From contig JAUZTB010000017.1 of assembly GCA_034780895.1 (NCBI GenBank), positions 29,833,573-29,897,572 on the forward strand: a stretch of DNA of 64,000 bases, read 5' to 3'. The notes beneath the pieces are model-generated. The model was not told the DNA's origin and did no database searches. It worked only from the letters and a program-made list of their open reading frames with translations. The DNA comes from Rhynchobatus australiae (Eukaryota). The stretch's first letter is position 1; each line of letters starts with the position of its first letter. Shown in pieces: positions 19,133 to 60,910 of the stretch. Made by a program: the position numbers and the translations under genes.

Positions 19133-19192
19133 TATTATTTAGTGCCACAAGATTATCTGTTCCAGGGTGAGGAAAATTAAGGCCCAAACGTC
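19133..19192 (-). CDS. CPEB3: CPEB3 third coding exon (60 nt)
   Basis: ttttacag|GACGTTTGGGC...CTAAATAATA|gtaagt; phase 1/1; encodes (G)RLGLNFPHPGTDNLVALNN, homologous to mammalian GRMGINFHHPGTDNIMALN. Not in the ORF track. Confidence 0.95.
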
Positions 19193-41149: not shown

Positions 41150-41585
41150 AATGAGCCCCTTTTACACTCACGCCCCTTCCTCTTTGCACCATTTCCCCCT
41201 GTGCCCCCCTCCAAGACATTGAAGCAGCTCTGTTCCTTTCTTTAATAGTATTTCCTTCCAACTCTTTTAGCTTGCTCACCCTTTGTTTCTCTTGTTTTTG
41301 TTACCAACATTCACTTCCACAACCACATCTCTTTCCTACACAAATATTTCCAGCTCTCTCAGATGGCACCAAGGGCAATTTAATCACCAAGACAACCTTG
41401 GTTCCACCCTACCACAGACATTCCTTTTGTTCACCCCACCCTGCCTCCTCCCTGCAACTTAACTTCCTCACTTTTGCAGTTCTGATGAATAATCAACAAC
41501 CTGAAATATTAACTCAGTTTCTCTCCTCATAAATGCTGCTTAACCTGCTGAGCATCACCAGCGATTTTTGTTTTTATTTCAATTG
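41150..41585 (+). mobile_element. Penelope-like 3' remnant with a hammerhead-like motif at 41477-41514
   Basis: Pyrimidine-rich tract, then agtt CTGATGA ... GAAA tatt aact and the shared tail tgctgcttaacctgctgag. Confidence 0.6.
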
Positions 41586-41589
41586 TCCA

Positions 41590-42270
41590 GCATAATTATC
41601 ACCAATAGCCTGTCCCGGTCCAACCACGTAGACTCTATGGCCAAAAAAACACACCAGTACCTCTACGTCCTCAGGAGGCTAAAGAAATTTGGCATGTCCC
41701 CTTTGAAAGCATCCTATCTGGATGCAACACGGCTTGTTATGGCAACTGCTCTGCCTGTGACTGCAAGGAAATGCANNNNNNNNNNNNNNNNNNNNNNNNN
41801 NNNNNNNNNNNNNNNNNNNNNNNNNNNNNNNNNNNNNNNNNNNNNNNNNNNNNNNNNNNNNNNNNNNNNNNNNNNNNNNNNNNNNNNTAAAGCAGCCAGC
41901 ATAATCAAAGACCCCACCCACCCCAGGCATTCTCTCTTCTCCCCCTCCCATGGGGCAGAAGTTACAAAAGCTGAAAGCACATATCATCAGCCTCTAGGAC
42001 AGCTTCTATCCCACTGTTATAAGGGTATTAAACAGTCCCCTAGTACAATAAATGGACTCTTGACCTCACAATCTACCTCGTTACAGTTTTGCACCTTATT
42101 GTCTACCTGCACTCTCTAACTGTAACACTTTATTCTGCATTCTACTGTTGTTTCCCCTTGTACTACCTCACTGCACTGTTGTAATGAAATAATCTGTATG
42201 GACAGCATGTAAAACAAGTTTTTCACTGTACCTCGGTACACGTGACAATAATAAACCCATTTACCTATTT
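41590..42270 (+). mobile_element. Rex1/Babar-like LINE 3' end
   Basis: AKKTHQYLYVLRRLKKFGMSP...KAASIIKDPTHPRHSLFSP; tail ttttcactgtacctcggtacacgtgacaataataaacc. Confidence 0.85.
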
Positions 42271-45200
42271 ACTTTGCTTTTCAAATCCACCATCTATACG
42301 ATGGCTGATTCTGCAACCCCACACTTACTAAATGCTTGGAATCTTCATTTGAGACAAACTTTTTCTTCCCCTACCAAGTTCTCAATTCCCCTCCTTGGCC
42401 CTGCTGGATCCAAGTATCTTCCTTCCTCAGATCTTCCCTCAATTGTAAGATTCCCTTGGATCCCTCAGATATCCTACATCCCAGAATTGGCATTGTGTTT
42501 CAAAAGTCTCTATGTAGTGCAATTAAGTGCACCAAAATGCATCTACTTCACACTGAAAATTATTACTTTCTAATCCTTGCTCCCTTTTCTGGGTTCGTAG
42601 CCAATGTAAGTTAATGCACCGAGTAATTGTAATAAACATAAATTTGCCATACCTCCAAGTCATTGTGACCAGAGGCAAAGACCTGCTGATACACAAGTGC
42701 CCATCGATGGTGCACTATCAATGGTGCACCAAAATTGAGTTTGTGCCCAGATGTCCCAGGCATGCATTTCTCATCCTCTATTTACTATAGTCACCTGTTT
42801 TGGTCATAATTCAATGTCAATGGCTTTACATTAGGAGATTTTGACATTGCAATTCACATTCAATTTCACTGTCACCTGCTCTAATGTTGCTCCAGTCTAC
42901 AGTTGCTAACTGAATTAATGAAGCAGGTTTTTGAATCTAGCTTATTAAAGACCTTTATAATGAATTGATTGAGCGCACACACACACACCATCTTTTACTC
43001 AACTGACATTTATATACATTCACAAAAGATATTCATACACTCTCAGGTGTATATTACTTGAAGTTTTCAAAACATTTACATTTTCCATGGATGCACAAGC
43101 ACATAATTACAAAGCAAAGTATTCATGACTTGCGTCTGATTGCTAACCTCAAAGCTTTCATAGCTTATCAGATACATCAAGGATAACCAATTACTGCATC
43201 TGCAAACAGACTAAGGCTGGGCTAATTCAAACACAGTCTACTAAACCCAGGGCAAGGTTAACCTCGATCAGTGTATTAGAGCAAAACACCGCATTTAATC
43301 TTGCTATTCCAGTCCTGTTCCAAGAGAAAAACAGTTGCAGTCAACACCCTCAATTATACAATCTTATGAGTAAAAGTGTTCTGTATTGACAATAAAACAA
43401 TCAAAGTCACTTTAAGTTATTTCTATATCTAGGATATTAAACAAATCAAGTTGTATAAAACTTAATAAATGTGCATTTTTGTTTGCCTCGTTAATAAATG
43501 AACTCAAATAAAAGCTGTCTGGAAATGGTCTTCAATTTTGCACATTATATATGTATTTTGATACATACAATGTTCGATTACCTAGGCTTTTAATTGGAGC
43601 ACAGGTTACCATAGGTGAATTAAAAACAGTAAACCAGACCTTAGACTGCATTTAATTATAAAAATTAATCAGCATCTGGTAAACTTCTCCGCTACTGTAA
43701 CACTGATACATGGTCTCCATTTCCTCATCCTCCATTTCACATCACTGAGCAGAAATGGCTTTGTATATCAACACATACAATCTAACACTACGTACTAGCA
43801 TACCGTTCTCAGTAAAAATGCAGTATCATATAAGGTTACCCTGACAATATAGTGAAAGTGATGATAATCATCAAAATAATTTATCATGGTCAGATACACA
43901 CTAAACTCCATTGCTACAATCAAACTGAACTGTAATGTCTTTTTTTTAGGGTCAGCTTGCTATTCCAAACTGAGCATTCACAAACCTCAAACTGAAGGTA
44001 TTGGATTCATTTTAAAATGGGAAAAAATGTTGTAATTTGAAATCTACGAAAATGATGGGTTTGGCATTGTCAGCTTACAAAGATCAAATGCAAGCTATGA
44101 AACATACACCAGCATCTAGAAATTGGATGTGTCTTGTCAACAGATAATATTTTATCACAAAACATCATNNNNNNNNNNNNNNNNNNNNNNNNNNNNNNNN
44201 NNNNNNNNNNNNNNNNNNNNNNNNNNNNNNNNNNNNNNNNNNNNNNNNNNNNNNNNNNNNNNNNNNNNTAGTTATAGGAAATTTTGTGAGAGCATACTGC
44301 ACCTGATTAGATAACCTGGTTTTCAATTCGAGTTAGTTACAAACATAATTCCCTACTGATAAGGAGATAAATGCACAAGAATGACCATTTTTGTTAGAAA
44401 ATAGAATTATATTATAACTTTACTCAAAAATAATGATTAAACCAGTTTAAATCATTGTATCACGAAAGATGAGCAAGTGGCTCACTTGATCATCTTTATT
44501 TTCTATTTTAATGAGCACCAGTTAGTAGTTTTGACTGCATCATATGGTACTTTTATCACAAAACATCCTAACAATCCAATGTTTATATCACCCAGGTATA
44601 CAATATTACATTGTTCAGACCAGCGAAGTTGTCCCTTTCCTTCTGCATGCTCCATTAACAAATAAATGCAATGCAGAATTTGACACATTTGTTTAGGTTC
44701 TGCGCAATAGTGCACGGTGTCACTCTCTCCCGTTTTGCAATTAATTTCTACTCTTCTTACAATAAAGGATATTCTCCCAGCAAAATTTCAAACTTCTGAC
44801 CCAATTGTGTACTTTCTTGTTTTAAATAATATGGAAATATGTAAATTGATGTAAAATATATCCAAGGGCATCAGTGATACAAGAAACCCAACCACAGTAA
44901 TATAGGATAAAAAGAAAGTACCATGGTATCTTTTTAATTGGAAAAGATGAACGTAATGCTTAACATTCTCTTTGCATGCAGCAAACACTACAGCAAATAC
45001 GTGAGGATATCACAGAAACTGCCGTTCCTTTGCTTTATACAATTGGAATACTTTATGGTCAGGGATTTTGCTCCACCTCTAAATGTTTGACGTCAAAACA
45101 ATTGTCCAAACAAAGCGGCCTTAAAAAAAAGGTCAGCTGTCGCCATAATGCCAAAATGAATTAGAGAAAATTAAACACGTACAGCATTCTTCAAAAATTG

Positions 45201-45719
45201 TAATCTTCACTGACCGCAATGGGGGCCTACCGGATGATAACGTTGTCTACAGCTCATGCTTCTCAACAGTACGGCCGCTGGATTTTTCCTNNNACCAACA
45301 TATATTTTACTGTATTTAAAATTTATCTCTTATACTTTAGACAGCCAGTGAACAATGATAACGATACTCTCAATTTTATATATGAAGCAAAAATTATTGG
45401 CAACATAGTGAAAACGCTGCATAAATTAAACAAGTATTGAAGGCATCTGGGTCCATTGCTTTTCAGCCAAGATTTTTTGGGAGTAGGGGTTCACAAAGAA
45501 CCTCGGTGTTAGACAGTGACAAGAACATGTTCATAGGAACCGGGGATATATTTGGACCGATCTTTGTAACTGACCAGCTGAAAAGAACAGATGCGGTATT
45601 TTCACTGCAATGTCACATCCCTTAAAGATGGCACTACAATATGGCTGTGAAGGTCATGTCCTAACGCGTCTTTTGTACATCTGGTTATGAAGAAAATATT
45701 GGAGGGCGCATTACTGTAC

Positions 45720-46604
45720 CTGAAATTGCAACATGCCGTTGTTGTTGTCCGTCCTAAAGGCGTTGTCGTCCATCCAAGACTTGGGGTTCAATGTGGGTGC
45801 AGTTCGAGGGAACTTAGGAGGGGCGATCACATTGCTGGAGAAGGGTTTCTTGAGCGGAGAGATAGGATTGAGAGGGGACGGCACCCCAACGGCTCGCCGG
45901 GGATCCCTGGCTTGTAGCCCGCTCCAAGGGTTGGGGGCAGTGCTCCAGGTCGTGTTCTGGTGGTTGTTCCAAGCCGAAGAAGGCTTGCTTGTCATGATGG
46001 GCTGGTGGCTGTAGGCGCTGCGTTGGGCGAAGGGAGCCTGCGGGCTGACCGGCGACCTCCTCTGCTGCTGTTGCTGTTGGGCGGCTTGGTGGTGCTGTGT
46101 CTGTTGAGCCAGACCGATCTGCGGCGAGAAAGTGCCACCGAAAACCGGGTTGACGTGAGTGAAATTTTGGAACAGCATCGTCCCATTCACTGGCGGGATC
46201 CCTTGGAAAAAGCTATCATCTACGGTGTTGGTGGTGCCGGTGGACCACGTACTGAACGAAGGGGACAAGGAGGTACCAGGCTCCTGGGGTTGAAAGCTCA
46301 AACCGGGCAAAATTGGCGATTCCATCTGCGCCTTCTCTTTATTCTGGCCAGAAACCGGGGCGTTTATACTCACGGAGCTCTCTTCTGATTTGGGGGTTTC
46401 TGCGGCTTCGGTACTTTGCTCTGACCTTGGTGAAAGCTGCTGGGGTTTGCTTTTGTCCATCAGTAAATCATCCTGCATGGTTTGCGGAGCTGAAACAGGA
46501 AAAAACAAAGACGCATTATTATTAGCTGTGTTCTGGTACTCCGGCGCCGGCGAAAATCCTGTATTATTGCTAGGTGACTGTAAAGCAAATCTGTAATCCC
46601 CCAT
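45720..46604 (-). CDS. CPEB3: CPEB3 first coding exon (N-terminal disordered region). Long form starts at ATG 46604 (MGDYRF...); canonical-type start MQDDLLMDKSK at 46478
   Basis: Translation contains MQDDLLMDKSK, MESPILPGLSF, NGTMLFQNF, VNPVFGGTFSPQIGLAQ and PSPLNPISPLKKPFSSNVIAPPKFPR, matching vertebrate CPEB3 as I recall it. Ends ...FQ at donor CAG|gtacag (phase 0). Confidence 0.97.
46490..46512 (-). promoter_or_regulatory. CPEB3 proximal 3' splice site, 11 nt upstream of the MQDD ATG
   Basis: Minus strand reads gtctttgttttttcctgtttcag|CTCCGCAAACCATG: strong pyrimidine tract plus CAG, followed by an ACCATG context. Confidence 0.8.
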
Positions 46605-47059
46605 TTAGCAGAGGGGTGGTTGGGGGGGTAGGGAGCAATATTAATAGTTCTCTTTTGAAAGAAGGAGGAGCGGCTTCACCCTTTCGTGTTCTGGTTTGCC
46701 CTCGGAATGAGAGATTTGGGATGCGGGCACAGATATTCACCAATTTCGCCACGTCTTTCTTTACACCGGAACTTCAGCTCTCACCCGCAATGTGAAACTG
46801 ATTCTTGTTCCTGTTCAAGAGCTTTCAAAGCCCTTTGCTAATTTACATACGTCAATAAATAGTGCNNNNNNNNNNNNNNNNNNNNNNNNNNNNNNNNNNN
46901 NNNNNNNNNNNNNNNNNNNNNNNNNNNNNNNNNNNNNNNNNNNNNNNNNNNNNNNNNNNNNNNNNNNNNNNNNNNNNNNNNNNNNNNNNNNNNNNNNNNN
47001 NNNNNNNNNNNNTGCAGCTCTGGGCACCATACTGCATTTTATTTAAACTCCCTGACCAA

Positions 47060-47100
47060 CTGGAAGGGGGTGGGGAGAAAGAGATGCAGAAACAGAAACC
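47060..47100 (-). promoter_or_regulatory. Candidate distal 3' splice site for a long CPEB3 exon containing the MGDY ATG
   Basis: Minus strand reads tttctgtttctgcatctctttctccccacccccttccag|TTGGTC: about 38-nt pyrimidine tract plus CAG. Confidence 0.6.
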
Positions 47101-48569
47101 TGCCTAAATCGAGTAAACAACAGCCTGTTTTGCACCAAAATTATCTTCGAACGTTAAACGAATAGGCGATTCGTTGAAAATACGACTTCATAACAAAATA
47201 AATGAAACAACCCGCCCTTAAAGCAGCAAAAGCTCATTTGACACGTAACTTATGACCTTGTCCATTTTATTCACGTCTGCATATTATTGACACGAATTAG
47301 ATTTCCAGCCCCGAGCACAATGAGATTTTACAAAGTCCCCAAAATCTCCTGCGTATTGTCATTTCTCGAGCAGCATATTTACGCCATTTATCTACACTAA
47401 CAAAATGTTTTTTTTATATATAAAATGGCTCCTTGATTTGCACGCCAAACGACGATTGGACAACTCCTAATTCTACTTTCTGAAGGACAAATTATATTTA
47501 TAAAAAAAGACTGATATCAAAATGACGAACTACAAAATACTCTTCCGCATTCTATAATGGCATTATTCAATTGAAATTTTAATCTGACCACTATGCAAAT
47601 CAGCAATCAAATCAAAACGTCGCTAAATTAACATGTTTAAAATGCACGTGTATTTTTAATCAGAATAATTATTTATCGTCAGCAGCACCAGACCCTCAAG
47701 GTCATTGTCAACTCGTATCCACATTCATGCCAAATGTTGCCAGTTTCATTTTAATTGGTTACGTACAGAGCTTAAAAAAGAGATGGCATTTCCTAAAAAA
47801 AATCAATATTAGATACATTCATTGTTCTAAATACCAAACGCGAGAAGAATAAAAATGAGTTATCTCCAGCAGGGCGTAAATGACAAGCGCTCTTCTAAAT
47901 AAATTGTTCTCTTAAACATAGGCAATGCTTCGTTTCTAACAACAAAAGGTCAGCTTTACAAATAAAATATTAATCCAAGTTAACCGACGAACTATATAAA
48001 ACAGTATTTTAGAAGAAAATATAACATTAATGGATACACATTCCCTTATTTACCCGATTCACAGCCTGTTATGCAGTATTGTTTTATAACTTTAAAAGGC
48101 CGATTTAGACACTTGTAATGGTCAAGGTCACAAGAAACGTATCTTATCATTAAAGCACATGATTGGATTTATTGTTTGGACAATGGAGAACTAACAATAT
48201 CACAACCCTCAAATCATTGCACTATAATTAACATTTAGTCATAACATGCTTATATTTTATGTTACATCCTTAAAAGTAATTCTGGATTTAGCAGTTGATT
48301 TCTTGTAGATTTCCATTCTTCTTTTGACAACTAATACGAGTTACCTTAGTATGAAACTTTGAACTAGTTTGTAAGAAATATGTGCCAATTCTGTTCTGGT
48401 GCGCAGCGCAAACTTCCAAATGGTCTACCCAACTAACCAGGGACCCAGCAAACCCAGACTGTCGGATCCCATTCGTACGCCTGAATGGGCGAAGCAGTGC
48501 ATTGCGGCAAATGCAGTCCTGGCCCCGCCAGACCTGGGCGGCTACGCACGGCGCTCGGGCGAAGGTAGA

Positions 48570-48588
48570 ACTACATCTCCCAGCATGC
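48570..48588 (+). promoter_or_regulatory. ZNF143/THAP11-type composite motif
   Basis: ACTACATCTCCCAGCATGC matches the ACTACAnnTCCCA(G)nATGC consensus enriched at bidirectional promoters. Confidence 0.8.
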
Positions 48589-48631
48589 GCAGCGACACGG
48601 ACTCCTCCGCTGCGGTGAGTGGCGGAGCGCG

Positions 48632-48640
48632 CACTTCCGG
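48632..48640 (+). promoter_or_regulatory. ETS/GABP site
   Basis: CACTTCCGG (CCGGAAGTG on the minus strand) inside the CpG island. Confidence 0.7.
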
Positions 48641-48881
48641 TTGGCTCAGTGCTATTATTTCCTCACAGTCAGTGAATGGAGGCCGCGGCTTGGAAGCGCT
48701 GGTTTCTGTTTTGAAAATAACAGGCGTCTGTAATATTATATAAAAAAAAACAATAATCGGCCACATTTCAGACGAGGGAGTTTTATAGCTAGGTTGGTGC
48801 GCATTAGGCTGTAGGTCGGGAGCACTGCGGCTGAGGCGGACGTTCAGCCGCCCCCCTCCCGGTTTGTGGGGACCGAGGGTG

Positions 48882-48912
48882 GCTGCTGCTGCTGCTGCTG
48901 CTGTTGCTGTTG
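48882..48912 (+). repeat. (GCT/CTG)n trinucleotide tract in the presumed MARCHF5 5' UTR
   Basis: gctgctgctgctgctgctgctgttgctgttg. Confidence 0.85.
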
Positions 48913-49053
48913 GGCCTGGAAACGTTCCCGGTGGATCGCGGTGAGGTTGAGGCCGGACGCGGGGCCCAGTGCAAAACCTTCACATGAATCTCCTCAGATA
49001 AGCGAAGGCGAGGAGGGGGGGGGCGGGGGGAAGCGGTAGTGGATTTCTGGAAG

Positions 49054-49103
49054 ATGTCTGGCGGCGCGGATCTCACGGCGGCCCCGTCGCAGCCGCTCGA
49101 TAG
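49054..49103 (+). CDS. MARCHF5: MARCHF5 (MITOL, mitochondrial RING-CH E3 ligase) coding part of exon 1
   Basis: aagATGTCT... encodes MSGGADLTAAPSQPLD(R); donor AG|gtgagt, phase 2; joins in frame to the exon at 63800 to give LDRSCWVCF as in vertebrate MARCHF5. Confidence 0.9.
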
Positions 49104-52100
49104 GTGAGTGATTCGGGCAGTTGGTGTCCGCCTGCCGACGGCCTCCGAAAGCCCACTCACATCCGCTGGGTCTTCGCTTTAGAAACCGCTTTGTTTTTTA
49201 TTATTATTTGTTCCTGATCTCGTCCGTTACTCGCTCTTGCATTCGAAAAGGTGGTTGTATAGTTTGTGTCGAGAGGCCCCCTTTGGTCTCGGAAGGGCAC
49301 GTTTGTGTTGCTACTTGATCGCTTGTGTCTTTGCTCACGGGCATCAACAAAATGTATTTATGGAAAAACGTGCTATTATTTGGCGTATTTTAAATGTTAG
49401 TGCTTATTTCTGATTTTACTATTACCGTAAAACTTGAAATTTTATTATCTACGTATTATATAATATTGAGCGCTTACTCAGGTAGTATTACGTAGGTAAA
49501 AGAGGAGTTTTCATCTTTAAGAATTTATAAACATTTACCAATGTCAGTATCATTTTCAATTGATTTTTAGTGATTTTTTTAAAAATATAATTCTTAATAT
49601 AACTGATGGAAGAAGTTAAAATGAGCTGTCTTGTCTTAAATTTCAATTATATTTCCATTGATAATTTTTTATTGTCCAATACTTTGAATATTATTTAAAA
49701 GTAAAGTAGAGGGGACTGTTTTTTAAATATGGAGAGCTGCCTTTCTTGTCTGTTTGATGTCACTAAAGAATGTGTACAATTCCATAAGATTATTTAACAC
49801 TTAAATTGAATCTTACCAGTGAGTTTATGAAATCCTGCCAATTTCTTTAGGTGAAGTTGAGTAATAAGTATTATTATTTTGTTCATGGTAATTTTCATTG
49901 AGTTTAGATTATTGAACAATGTCCAATTAAAACATTCCAAAAGTAGATTTTTGCAGAGAGAGGTGTCATCTTTCTCTTTCTGCTGATACTGCTTGACCTG
50001 CTGAGTGTTTCTAGCAATTTGTTTTTATTTCAGATGTACAGAGGTGCAGTTTTTTAAAATTTGTTTTCATACAGATAGATTTTGGTTTAATGCTAATCAT
50101 GCGTGATTGTTCCAAAGAATTTTTTTTGCATTTCATTTATGGGGGTTTCTGTCTCCAAAGGATTTTGAGAGCAAAGAAATCTTGTTGATTAGTTAGAAAC
50201 TAAATGGAAAAAATCCAACTCCAAGTTGACTACAAGGTACTGTATTCATGTAATTTTGTTTGCAAGTCATTTAGTGTTTCCTAGTTAATGAGAGCAACTA
50301 TTCATCAGAACTCGTAGGTTGTGAATTGTGTTGGGACATTCTGTGGGTGAGGAAAGTGTTAGGTAAATACAATCTTTTATTTCTATTTTTCATTGTATCC
50401 AGAACTATCAGATCCTGTTTTCTGGCTAGACACCTGTGAATTTCAGATTCTTAACAAGAAATAGGCTGAAAGGATATTGATATCAGTTTCCTATGCAACT
50501 AGTTTTTATGGTGATCTCAGAAGCCAGGGCTTCACTAGGAGTTGCCCAACAAAACTATCCTTTTAATCAGAAAGTTTGGCACTTCACAGCTTTTTATTTC
50601 GAGTAATGTCTTCAATATACAGAACTAATGCTTACAAGTGGACACAATGAATATCAGCACAGAATAATGACTTAATTTTTCAGCCATTATTCAGCCATTT
50701 AACACCAAAATTATATCCACATTGCTTTAACAAGCTCCCACCCTAGTCTGACTGTTCCTCTTATTGCAAAATAGGTGTACTGCATGACTCCCTCATTCAA
50801 TAAAAGTCCAGTATACATCTCCCATCATTAGCAAACATTCACTTAACAAATCCTCATCACAACAAACTATTTTATTTAGTTTAATTTGTGGCTTAACAGT
50901 TTTGTTTCCCACAATGAAGGGTAAGGAACATGTTTGGTAACGTGCCTTTCAAACACAGGCCTGTGGAAACTAGTAATACTTATATCTTTTTTGATCAGGT
51001 TAGTGGGAAAGAGCCTGTGAAATAAACAAGCTATTTAAAATGGGGGTGGGGGGGACTGGGGAACTCTCTTGAGCATCTGCTCTCTTCCATCTGGCAACAA
51101 TGGTGATTAGATGAGTGACTTTTAAGTTTGAGCTTATTAAAACAAGGGTACTTTGGTTTTGATATACTGCATCCTTACTGGGAAGGGATTGACTAGCTTC
51201 TAACTTACTACCATCCGTAGCAACTGGTATCCCAGAATGGTTTACAGTACCTTACATATGTAAATTTTCCACACAACGAAGGGTTTGTTAACCTAGGGAA
51301 GTCTATATGTCTGTATATGCAACATGTTAAGAGGGTATTCAAGAGGCAGACTCAATAAAAGATGCGTATTAGAAATATTTGAGAATAGGGTAAAATAAAA
51401 GGTGAATTACTCTTTCAGAGCATCAGAATATATCCATGGATCAAATATCCTCTTCTTCTGTGCTATGATCTTGCCCTCTCAACTTAAATGATTATTATAA
51501 ACATCAATGGATTCCTGAATGGCTAAATCATTTATTTGTTTGGACAGAGATTCTGAACTGATTTTGAAATGTTATTTAGAAATTTAATGTTGCAGAAAGT
51601 AGTGCAAAGTATTTTTAATAGCAAGTTTAATGAAGTGAATTTTTACAAATGGAACATTGTGACAACAGTATCTGCTAGTATTTCAGGGTAAAAGTTTCTG
51701 ACAAGTTTTTACTTAATCACAGCTTTTCTTCAATGCCTTGTATACCTTATGGTTTTTGCACCACATCTGGTTACTTAGAGATGCACAATGATATAAGGTT
51801 AATTAATTCTATCTGTCCCATCTGTTCATTTCTTCCTGGTTACGCCATAGTGAAATATCCTGATAACTGGTGAAGAGGAATGTCTCCAGTGGAAATCCTC
51901 CATCATTGGGGGACCTTGAATAGAGAGTGTGGGACAAACTACATATGTCTTTCTGAGAGTTTATAGACCGGGCTGTGTGTGTGCATTCTGCAGCTTCGAA
52001 AATAATTTTCATGTTTCTTTATGGCATCAGAAGTCACAGCAACTCACTCAATATTTTATTTGTCAACTAGTGGTTAAATTTAGTTCATCACGTGGTAATC

Positions 52101-53684: not shown

Positions 53685-53950
53685 GCAGCACAAAAACAGG
53701 CCTTTTGGCCCAACCTGTCCATGCTGACCAAGTTGTCTATTTGGGCTAGGCTTATTTTGCTGTGTTTGGCCCATGTCCCTCTAAATCTTTCCTATCCATG
53801 TACCTGTCTAAATGCATTATAAATGTTATAATTATACCTGCCTCTACCACTTCCTCTGGCAGCTTGTTCCATATGCCCACCACTGTGGTTTTGCCCCTTG
53901 GATCCCTTTTAAATCTTTCCCCTGTCACCTTGAATCTATACTCTCTAGGA
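53685..53950 (-). mobile_element. CR1 3' end
   Basis: ORF 53752-53994(-) FKVTGERFKRDPRG...VVGIWNKLPEEVVEAG...HLDRYMD. Confidence 0.88.
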
Positions 53951-56900
53951 TGCAAAGTGAAGAGAGAAATGAAGTTTGATCTCAGGGAGGCCATGCTTTT
54001 CTCATTTACATACCCTTGCAGTCTGTTGTAGCAGGTGGGCAGAGGAAAAGATTCTCAATACTCTCAAAGCCTCTTGGTAGGATGCATGGGATTGGGGAGA
54101 GTATTACATCCCCATGAATGCATGAGAATCTCTACATCTTGACCACTCAAACTGGAGGAGAAGCATTAAAGAAGTAATAAAGAACCTTGAGTCCATACAT
54201 CAAGAATCCAAGGAAAGAACTGCACCTCCTCCCAAACTACCTGCCTGTCCCACCAACACCTCCTGGCTCATCTGTTCACTTTTTACCAAAGAACTGGAAT
54301 GGAAGTAAATAATTCTCAACCCCAAGGGATTTCTTAAGAAGAGAAGAAGAATGGAAAATTTGCAAATGTGGTGTAACAATTATTGTGGCAGTTTTAGTAA
54401 TTTTTCTTTCTATGGAATGTAAAATAAGTTTATGGTTAAATGTCAGTTTGAAATGGGTCATGATCTCTCTAGTATTCACAATGGATACACAGGTCTTTCT
54501 GGGAAATCATCTCAAACAGTTTAGAAATTTACTGCATTCTTATTAATATAATTGGGGGGAGCAAATACTACTGCCCATTTTTTTAATGAACTTGTTATGC
54601 AATATAGAGCCAAAACAACCATCAGCAAATATTTCATGGTGTTTGCTCATTGCTTGTTTATATGGTGGGGTGGGATGCAATTGATTTTTAACACTTCTGT
54701 TTTGGGTTTTTGCACCATTATGGTGTGATATATACTTTTATTGAAGCATAAGGGAAGGGTACAACAATTACTCTCCCCAAGAGAAAGCAGACTCTAATCA
54801 CGTCACTGGTGACTAAAGCAGGCATTTTTTGTTTTAGGCCACACATTCCTGCTAAAATTAATTTGTGAAAATTGCAATAGATGTATGTTTGCTGATTAAT
54901 TTAAAAACTAAATCTTTCTTGTTGGTTTGCTTCACTACCTTCTACATACATTGAATCTTTATATCATGGGTCCACAGATGCAAATTTCCATTAATTGGCT
55001 ATTATTCAAGTGTGAGCATTGAGAGTTGGCATTAGCAGGAGGCACCCCAGCAAAGTCTGATACTGTGTTCACCAGATGTCTACAAGGGCAGCCCCAATCT
55101 GGAAGGCAAATAAGAGTAAGAACTTTCCTGGCACTGAGCTCAATTGTTGCCCTTGTCCAGCTGAGATCAAGCTAATTCGGTACAGACTGGCGATAACACC
55201 TGGGACTTCCTAGTATGGTTCATTTAATGCGAGTAAATATTTTGATTAAAATGGAATGATATGCATTTGTTCTTTGTGTCAAAAATGAAGTGGTTTTGAC
55301 TAATCTTAGATTTTAGTTGTTGTATAACGGTCAGAAAGAAAACAAACAAAGTTATGAATAGATCATCCAGTTTTGCAACTGCTTAATAAGTTGGCAAAAG
55401 TTAGAAGAAAGGCCAAGCAGCTCTTGAGCAAATGGGTACATTGTGATTTCCTGAACTACAATTAAGGTTAGCAAGCGTTTTTGAATGTAGTTATTTAAAT
55501 CCATATGTGCTATTTTCCATTTTTGCGTATGATTTAATGAGTTGAAGCAGTTCAACAAATTGAGTTGTGTTAGTTCAGCAATTGCCTTTAGAAACAGGTT
55601 GGGCTATTTAGTTACAGTTGAAATGACTTGGAATTTGATTAACTACAGAATAATTTGGTTATTTATTCATTTGACTAAATGGTTAGTGTAAATATTACAT
55701 GGTCAAAGACTGGTTAGGGAGGCTGTTTTGTCTGGCCTCGACAGCTCCAGCAAGATGCTGGTAGCTGGATTAGTAGAGTAATAGTGGAGGATGGCAATCA
55801 GGATGTATACGAGTAACAGCATGCTTAATCTGGGGTAAAGGCTTTTCTGGGGGTTTAAGTAAATACATTTTGTTCCTTTATAGAGGGAAATATTCTGTGT
55901 CTGCCTTCTTGAACCATCTAAAAGTATTGTTGATGTCGATGAGATCATGCTTGTTCTTTTAAATTCCAGGAAATACAAGCCTCAAATACTTGGTTTCTCC
56001 TTGTCTGATGGGCTNNNNNNNNNNNNNNNNNNNNNNNNNNNNNNNNNNNNNNNNNNNNNNNNNNNNNNNNNNNNNNNNNNNNNNNNNNNNNNNNNNNNNN
56101 NNNNNNNNNNNNNNTGCCTGGATCTGGTTTGGTAAATCTTCTCTGCATTCTGTAGCAAATACAGATGACATCCACATTACGGCCATTTGAGGAACAGAAA
56201 TTCGTCCTTACAGAATTTACAAATCACTATCTTAAAATTTGAGATATGGAATAAAATTTGCACTCAGAATTTACATGATTTTAAAAACTAAATAAATACA
56301 ATTGTTTTCAACTGACATTTCCTGAGGGGTGTGCAGATGACATATCACTTAATGAAGGCCAACATGCTGTTTGCCTTCCTACCTGTGTTGTGCCTTCGTT
56401 ACTGCCTGTTGCATCTTCATGTTAGCTTTGATTTGTGTCCAAGAATACCCAGGTACCTTTTAAACATCAGCATTTCTAAAAAAAATACTCGGCTCTTGTG
56501 CTTTTTCTGGTTGGGGGGGGGGGGTTGGTGGGGATTCATATTTTTGCCCAGCAATAATGGAGGAACAATAATTGTATGTGCAAGTCAGGATTGGTACATG
56601 GCTTGAAGATGGTGTTCAGATACACCTACAGCTTTTTGTCATTACTGATGACAGATTTTGCGTATTCAAGTGGCACTGTCAAAGAAGTTGCCTCCCTGCA
56701 GTGAATTATGTGCTGGGAAGAGGGTACAGTTGTGCAGTAGTGGGTGAGTTCTTGATGAAACAGACTACCCTCTCCTGGATCCTATTGAATTTATTGGGTA
56801 CTTGTATAATCAATGAACATCAATCAATGCAAGATGTCTGATGGTTTTTAAAATATCCTATTACACTTAATTGACAACATAATCTATCTCCTTGATCAAC

Positions 56901-60229: not shown

Positions 60230-60910
60230 AAGTTGATTTATTATTGTCATGTACTGAGGTACAGTGAAAAACTTGTTTTGCATGCTGTCCATACAGATCA
60301 TTTCATTACAACAGTGCATTGAGGTAGAACAAGGGAAAACAATAACAGAATAAAGTGTTACAGTTATAGAGAAAGGGCAGTGCAGGTAGACAATAAAGTG
60401 CAAGGCCATAATGAAATAGATTGTGAGGTCAAGAGCCTATCTTGTACTGGGGACTGTTCAGTAGTCTTATAACAATGGGATAGAAGCTGTCCTTGAGCCT
60501 GGTGGTACGTGCTTTCAGGCTTTTNNNNNNNNNNNNNNNNNNNNNNNNNNNNNNNNNNNNNNNNNNNNNNNNNNNNNNNNNNNNNNNNNNNNNNNNNNNN
60601 NNNNNNNNNNNNNNNNNNNNNNNNGTGGGATAGAAGCTGTCCTTGAGCCTGGTGGTACGTGCTTTCAGGCTTTTGTATCTTCTGCCCAATGGGAGGTGGG
60701 AGAAGAGAGTGTCTGGGGTGGGTGGGGTCTTTGATTATGTTGCCTGCTTTACTGAGGCAGTGTGAAGTATAGACAGAGGCCATGGGGAGGAGGCTGATTT
60801 CTGTGATGTGCTGAGCTGTGTCCACAATTCTTTGCAGTTTCTTGCGGTCACGGGTAGAACAGTTGCCATATCAAGCTGTGATGCATCCAGATAGGATGCT
60901 TTCTATGTCC
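60230..60910 (-). mobile_element. Rex1/Babar-like LINE 3' end
   Basis: IIKDPTHPRHSLL...GRRYKSLKARTTRLKDSFYP; reverse-complement similar to 41590-42270. Confidence 0.87.

Follow-up and report, generated by a model that had tools for sequence, protein, structure and literature searches.

Work on CPEB3 has treated the protein as a prion-like regulator of long-term memory, with its residues numbered from a start at MQDD (PMC9166367, PMC2807433, as far as the available parts of both go). According to the available part of PMC9166367, the human protein's ten N-terminal residues form a partial helix that precedes a Q-rich stretch, and any extension of the N-terminus would therefore adjoin the prion-like region. 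In mouse, alternative 5' UTR exons 1-3 are spliced into the exon that carries the start codon, and Wang and Cooper called the 716-aa form that starts at MQDD the longest isoform (PMC2807433, available portion). A pair of N-terminal forms in a related protein is that of Drosophila Orb2A and Orb2B, which differ in N-terminal length and share their Q-rich and RNA-binding parts, with splicing gating the short form (PMC8011179, PMC12415542, accessible parts). Vertebrate CPEB3, by comparison, "appears to work in isolation" according to the accessible part of a 2025 review (PMC12415542), and the region of CPEB proteins outside the RNA-binding domain has been described as having no recognisable conservation across phyla (PMC10284499, in the part available).

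Here we describe the 5' part of a CPEB3 gene within 64,000 nucleotides of genomic DNA of Rhynchobatus australiae (the window), in which an open frame continues 42 codons upstream of MQDD. We think it likely that these codons are translated as a long isoform, and that splicing to a predicted acceptor within them leaves the canonical short isoform that starts at MQDD. A long CPEB3 isoform is already present in automated annotations and was not found discussed in print in the literature searched: the accessible portions of PMC11965684 (including its 5 supplements), PMC9465852 and PMC11711090 hold no mention of a long CPEB3 start, and no paper on an MGDY-start CPEB3 was found in a search that left most subscription papers and bioRxiv supplements outside its scope. 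No relevant paper on ribosome or peptide support for the extension was found in the same literature.

The gene and its open N-terminal frame

By sequence comparison the gene is CPEB3 of the CPEB2-4/Orb2 subfamily, nearer CPEB3 than CPEB2 or CPEB4. The exon that contains the MQDD start shares 96% identity with the CPEB3 of Mustelus and Carcharodon, as against 38-41% with CPEB4 and 45%, over partial length only, with a caecilian CPEB2. A tree of the N-terminal regions, which does not resolve the deeper CPEB3 node, places the exon with shark CPEB3 at 96/99. Downstream exons of the CPEB3 type are present in the expected order (Table 1); no tandem RRM exons occur within the window, as these lie past its end, and the domains of the orthologue P0002 are RRM_7, RRM_1 and CEBP_ZZ. 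No gene adjacent to CPEB3 was recognised in the window. P0044, labelled "CPEB4 protein, partial" in Polypterus senegalus, is likewise of the CPEB3 type by alignment and tree.

Table 1. Positions in the window of the CPEB3 features discussed in the text.
Feature	Position	Strand	Basis or remark
Conserved non-coding blocks (46854-46841, 46804-46795, 46756-46743, 46742-46730)	46730..46854	-	shared with positions 134-259 of the teleost-type locus L001
GC/CpG-rich core, candidate upstream non-coding first exon(s)	48250..49500	-	predicted donors 49160, 48344
Predicted 295-nt intron enclosing the first ATG	46490..46784	-	donor 46784, at the 98.9th percentile of GTs when scored with an approximate donor matrix
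In-frame TAA abutting the first ATG on its 5' side	46605..46607	-	also TAA in L001
Long-form start ATG	46604-46602	-	context T at -3, G at +4
N-terminal extension, 42 in-frame codons	46479..46604	-	ORF listing and homology to CPEB3/CPEB4
Out-of-frame 18-codon uORF spanning the second ATG	46460..46516	-	ATG at 46516; not in L001
Predicted splice acceptor: AG with its polypyrimidine tract, within the final codons of the extension	46490..46512	-	first exonic base 46489
Second ATG (MQDD), canonical CPEB3 start	46476..46478	-	A at -3; human start M1QDD (PMC9166367)
First coding exon used by the short form; low-complexity N-terminal region	45720..46489	-	donor at 45719
Next CPEB3 coding exon, including the GKHYPP...HFA segment	26362..26521	-	tblastn, 84% to lungfish CPEB3
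Third CPEB3 coding exon	19133..19192	-	tblastn; boundaries read from sequence

A single frame runs on the minus strand from the first ATG to a stop at 45711 (46604..45711). The earlier description of this frame, with an in-frame ATG 126 nt upstream of the MQDD codon (which begins at 46478), 42 additional residues and a TAA directly before them, was confirmed, and the residues are exactly as given. The openness of the extension, taken alone, is weak evidence, with 1740 of 18210 random 42-codon stretches of the window also open (9.6%); on the comparisons described below, what rises above chance in the extension is its homology and not its openness. The context of the second ATG is better than the weak context of the first (A against T at -3). 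Aromatic residues account for 6 of the 42 positions of the extension, as compared with 7.5% in the remainder of the exon. No Pfam family was found over the extension in four homologues, no PDB chain matched the N-terminal part of the tick Orb2 discussed below, the protein atlas gave no usable match, and Rfam returned 0 matches across the window. We also considered N-myristoylation of the extension, which was rejected on the consensus, since residue 3 is acidic and position 6 holds no Ser/Thr, and a structured 5' UTR, which was dropped when the fold of 46595-46865 proved not to be stabler than shuffles (z 0.79).

Homology to CPEB4, CPEB2 and tick Orb2

By alignment, the extension is homologous to the N-termini of both CPEB4 and CPEB2, as the sequence-only reading had proposed, with the match to CPEB2 the weaker of the two. 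The elements MGDYxF, LFP and xQD[DE]xL occur in the same order in human nCPEB4 (bioRxiv 2023.03.19.532587, available part) and in shark and ray CPEB4b, and a narrower search gave 6 matches from 41 candidates, all of them chondrichthyan CPEB4. Shark and ray CPEB4b begin with MGDYGF and retain LFP as well as the second Met; aligned globally to them, the 42 residues scored z 7.9-9.5 (0/2000 shuffles). The homologous start is the standard one in CPEB4, where the second Met is replaced by Ile in bony vertebrates, including human nCPEB4 with its MGDY start (same preprint, available part), whereas shark CPEB4b retains it; a His-rich linker further distinguishes CPEB4 from CPEB3. A caecilian CPEB2 has MGDYGF at its start and MQDELL at 84, and aligned with z 4.0 (2/2000 shuffles). 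The human CPEB2 start MRDFGFG, given in the sequence-only reading, did not turn up among the sequences compared.

The same arrangement is found in an invertebrate. When 50%-identity representatives were searched with a profile, the best 150 of 2859 matches included the Orb2 of the tick Amblyomma americanum, a single-copy gene in which isoform X1 (XP_077502055.1) has MGDYTF at 1 and MQDDLL at 40, and isoform X2 (XP_077502056.1) equals X1 from residue 40 onward. In these annotated models, as predicted for the ray, a long MGDY form is paired with a short one that begins at the internal MQDDLL, the tick starts being 39 aa apart. Global alignment of the 42 residues to tick Orb2 gave z 6.7 (0/2000 shuffles). 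Beetle, mayfly, horseshoe crab and hagfish proteins begin with MG[DE]F, and the beetle protein, which also has MQDE at 62, aligned with z 3.6 (5/2000 shuffles). A strict version of the start motif is present in 8 of the 54 Orb2-type representatives and missing from the other 46 (best 150 of 2859), and a looser motif, chosen post hoc, was found at 0 of 651 internal methionines. In Table 1 of PMC10284499, in the part available, the forward primer for Nematostella CPEB2 begins at an ATG and the reverse primer at a stop; the forward primer translates to MADFG, which at five residues only is suggestive only.

Because the tick outgroup has the MGDY...MQDD pair, the pre-duplication origin that had been proposed for the extension finds support. 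By parsimony, the N-terminus with two methionines would be older than the vertebrate duplications, and it is probably older than the protostome-deuterostome split.

The long form among CPEB3 orthologues

When residues 1-48 were used as a query, lungfish and anchovy CPEB3 were matched over the full query length (2 matches from 9 candidates). Orthologous extensions with the same MQDD end are present in the predicted long CPEB3 of lungfish (XP_043912635.1), anchovy (XP_063047828.1), macaque (XP_077802903.1) and gibbon (XP_030665121.1), and they are longer in the predicted RefSeq/UniRef isoforms (50-63 aa) than here (42 aa). Aligned globally, the 42 residues scored z 11.6-13.6 with the CPEB3 of lungfish, coelacanth, lynx and anchovy (0/2000 shuffles), and an alignment to one further protein was not significant (92/2000 shuffles reached its score). 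The anchovy protein is annotated with both starts.

A broader search with the lungfish N-terminus, from which the best 120 of 246 matches were examined and 3 CPEB4b rows excluded, left 117 CPEB3-type proteins. Within this set of best matches, 57 have a long start (MG/MR/MS-D/E), spanning 50-63 aa in 11 length classes, 22 begin at MQDD and 38 have other N-termini. A hand count of the matches listed places the long form in at least 41 named species: 19 eutherians (among the matches listed: primates, bats, cats, pigs, cattle and one rodent), 20 ray-finned fishes, the lungfish and the coelacanth. Every named long form is an automated gene model, and the search ranked proteins by likeness to the long N-terminus, so that intact frames are over-represented. 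Among the matches listed there was no long form from amphibians, reptiles, birds or afrotherians, and no long entry named as human or house mouse; nor did any named chondrichthyan CPEB3 model encountered have the long start. The sequence-only reading had supposed the extension to be lost from mammalian CPEB3, or unannotated there. Neither holds: an orthologous extension of 50 aa is present in predicted CPEB3 isoforms of at least 19 named eutherian species and is absent only from the canonical isoform.

The closest relative is a cartilaginous-fish ORF (P0356) in which all 42 codons are intact, with 3/42 differences in the extension against 2/252 in the residues that follow, so that the extension is more different than the downstream exon. 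Across orthologues the two ends of the extension are conserved as protein and the middle is divergent. A first metagenome scan for the locus gave no match, and a second, with patterns from downstream of the extension, recovered the teleost-type locus L001 (1 locus from 71 pattern matches), the sole orthologous DNA recovered. L001 has TAA-ATG followed by 55 open codons; its extension differs from the icefish model P0074 at 2/55 residues, by inspection, and its +1 frame is likewise open across the extension, the middle of which is barely alignable at the DNA level.

Several unusual N-termini look as if the eutherian extension were translated in its +1 frame up to a frameshift, and 4 of the 8 models tested fit this reading: Loxodonta (9/9; 1/150 shuffles), Elephas (9/9; 4/150), Ochotona (7/9; 7/150) and Manis (10/12; 0/150). 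Candoia, Rhinatrema, Nannospalax and Alligator showed no fit. The models that fit, from elephants, pangolin and pika (P0055-P0057, P0067 and P0068), suggest independent frameshift losses of the long form, which would therefore be dispensable in some lineages. The expectation that relatives keep the frame intact is borne out for P0356, lungfish, coelacanth, ray-finned fishes and eutherians, and fails for elephant, pika and pangolin, which look frameshifted. Both the frame and its protein-level conservation appear to have been kept across lineages, intact cases being over-sampled and some lineages apparently frameshifted. The long start may also be altered in some rodents; Acomys reads MRDY. Two rodent-type genomic ORFs (P0131 and P0133) are called from within the extension, without the MGDY start.

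A predicted splice acceptor within the extension

The codons for LFF near the end of the extension double as a splice signal, placing a predicted acceptor 11 nt upstream of the second ATG (Table 1). An ad hoc score ranks this acceptor in the top percentile of the 3764 AGs on the minus strand. Models of CPEB3 from sharks and other species meet at the same point, and the AG is present at the identical offset in L001. All 38 of the "other" N-termini (best 120 of 246 matches) share an xQT/xQI/xQA tail before MQDD, which marks the acceptor position. With an upstream donor, which is not kept in L001, the acceptor would define a short intron containing the first ATG. The extension had previously been taken as a fixed N-terminus; its frame is indeed intact, and the acceptor in its last codons, which had been missed, would make it an alternative isoform instead.

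In the Rhinolophus sinicus (horseshoe bat) model P0123, an MGDY start reaches the acceptor tail after 13 residues, which would imply transcripts spanning the first ATG. The splice in this model omits the middle of the extension and is exitron-like. A third N-terminus of CPEB3, 17 aa long (MKIHIW...) and near-invariant from sturgeon to teleosts (P0007, P0064-P0066, P0083, P0085, P0086 and P0106), also joins at the acceptor; no match to it was found upstream in the window.

Conserved upstream DNA and less likely readings of the extension

Upstream of the first ATG, four exact words totalling 51 bases are common to the window and L001, a total that 0 of 1000 random windows reach (maximum 29). These blocks are likely to be elements of a proximal promoter or 5' UTR. 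The first of them (46854-46841) includes a minimal ATG-TAA uORF (46848), conserved with L001, and a TGACG that we take to be a CRE-type half site; the TGACG and GACGTG cores of the blocks are presumably CREB/ATF- and XBP1/ATF6-type sites. The segment 46814-46724 matches the N-terminus of the python CPEB3 model P0171 (E 0.004), and the region is therefore treated as exonic in python. When upstream exons were sought with 10 shark/teleost alternative N-terminus queries, only python P0171 was convincing, the others giving E >= 0.56. Farther upstream, the core at 48250..49500 has a GC content of 0.47-0.59 and a CpG o/e of 0.91-1.31, compared with 0.26 for the window. Over the 4.7 kb of 45001-49750 the CpG o/e is 0.6-1.3, even where GC is 30-35%, and it falls to <=0.15 beyond 49500; this stretch is likely to be a long unmethylated promoter domain.

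Since the upstream non-coding DNA is conserved, part of the conservation of the extension may not serve the protein. Taken to its limit, this would make the extension an untranslated relic, formerly coding and now intron or 5' UTR, preserved by promoter and splice-signal constraint and reported as protein where predictors extend the open frame. We regard this as distinctly improbable. The conserved blocks do directly adjoin the extension, and the acceptor does overlap its best-conserved C-terminal motif, but such constraint sits poorly with protein ends conserved over ~450 My while the DNA of the middle barely aligns. A relic would be consistent with the apparent frameshifts in elephants, pika and pangolin and with the proportion of random 42-codon stretches that are open; however, the frame is open at 11 different lengths among the matches listed, in addition to the 42 aa here. 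Finally, a 716-aa MQDD form as the longest mouse isoform (PMC2807433, available portion) would agree with an untranslated extension, but the homologous start is the only start of CPEB4 (preprint cited above, available part), and the tick has the same pair of starts.

Two further alternatives concern how the starts are used. One is that cartilaginous fishes make CPEB3 chiefly in its long form, with the acceptor playing a minor part here; the intact frame in the ray and in P0356, together with the use of the homologous start by shark CPEB4b, would fit this, but all 5 named shark CPEB3 models lack the long start and either begin at MQDD or join by splicing immediately ahead of it, the acceptor belongs to the strongest-scoring class of the window and the second ATG has the better context, and we consider a dominant long form very unlikely. 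The other, that the first ATG and the out-of-frame ATG at 46516 serve mainly to damp initiation at MQDD on unspliced RNA while the peptide does little, is extremely unlikely: it would accord with the weak context of the first ATG, the overlapping out-of-frame uORF, the conserved ATG-TAA uORF at 46848 and the splicing of a non-coding Orb2A transcript that gates the short isoform in Drosophila (Gill et al. 2017, cited in PMC12415542, accessible part), but the in-frame start would yield a full-length protein instead of repression, the out-of-frame ATG is missing in L001, and a purely regulatory role does not need conservation of MGDYxF out to tick.

Discussion

The arrangement that we favour is one in which the choice between long and short CPEB3 would be set by transcript structure. 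If the 295-nt intron is retained in a transcript from a proximal promoter (46854-46730), or if the transcript begins below the donor of that intron, initiation would occur at 46604, and spliced transcripts, as well as those from distal first exons, would enter at 46489 and start at 46478. Given the weak context of the first ATG, some ribosomes may also scan past it to the second. What the extension might do is the most speculative part of this proposal: it would bring an M-G-D-aromatic terminus and the hydrophobic LFF/LFP residues, carried on a variable linker, in front of the N-terminal helix and the Q-rich region, and might in this way tune condensation or partner binding.

If the long isoform is real and conserved, 42-63 further residues would stand immediately before the N-terminal helix of CPEB3 and its Q-rich segment, and its two forms would give fly Orb2A and Orb2B a testable vertebrate parallel. 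In the ray, the pair of N-terminal isoforms is predicted from sequence and gene models only. The two systems would also differ in other respects: the fly short form has its own seeding peptide, whereas short CPEB3 would be a plain truncation of the long form, and the short form is rare in flies (PMC12415542, accessible part) but canonical in CPEB3. The long form is already annotated automatically, and it appears to be dispensable in several lineages, which limits how much weight it can bear. The conservation of the extension nonetheless qualifies, for CPEB N-termini, the statement that there is no conservation across phyla (PMC10284499, in the part available).

The distribution of the two starts suggests that CPEB2-4 divided an ancestral long/short pair after duplication. 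The N-terminus with two methionines would have been ancestral for the Orb2/CPEB2-4 subfamily; the long form would have become fixed in bony-vertebrate CPEB4, with the change of the second Met to Ile, and CPEB3 would have come to be known chiefly by its short form, with the long frame lost in some tetrapod lineages. A broader conjecture, which we think rather unlikely and offer tentatively, is that the MGD-aromatic...MQD arrangement constitutes an ancestral bilaterian switch of Orb2-type CPEBs, perhaps an older one if the MADFG of Nematostella belongs to it, in which vertebrate CPEB3 would still make both forms through regulated retention of the short intron in transcripts from a proximal CRE promoter and the two forms would co-assemble while differing in aggregation. 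If true, this would supply a vertebrate counterpart of Orb2B and Orb2A in memory.

Elsewhere in the window, ORF fragments at 2409-2711, 41544-42119, 53752-54054 and 60364-60870 resemble what we take to be retroelement remnants of the kind common in cartilaginous fish genomes.
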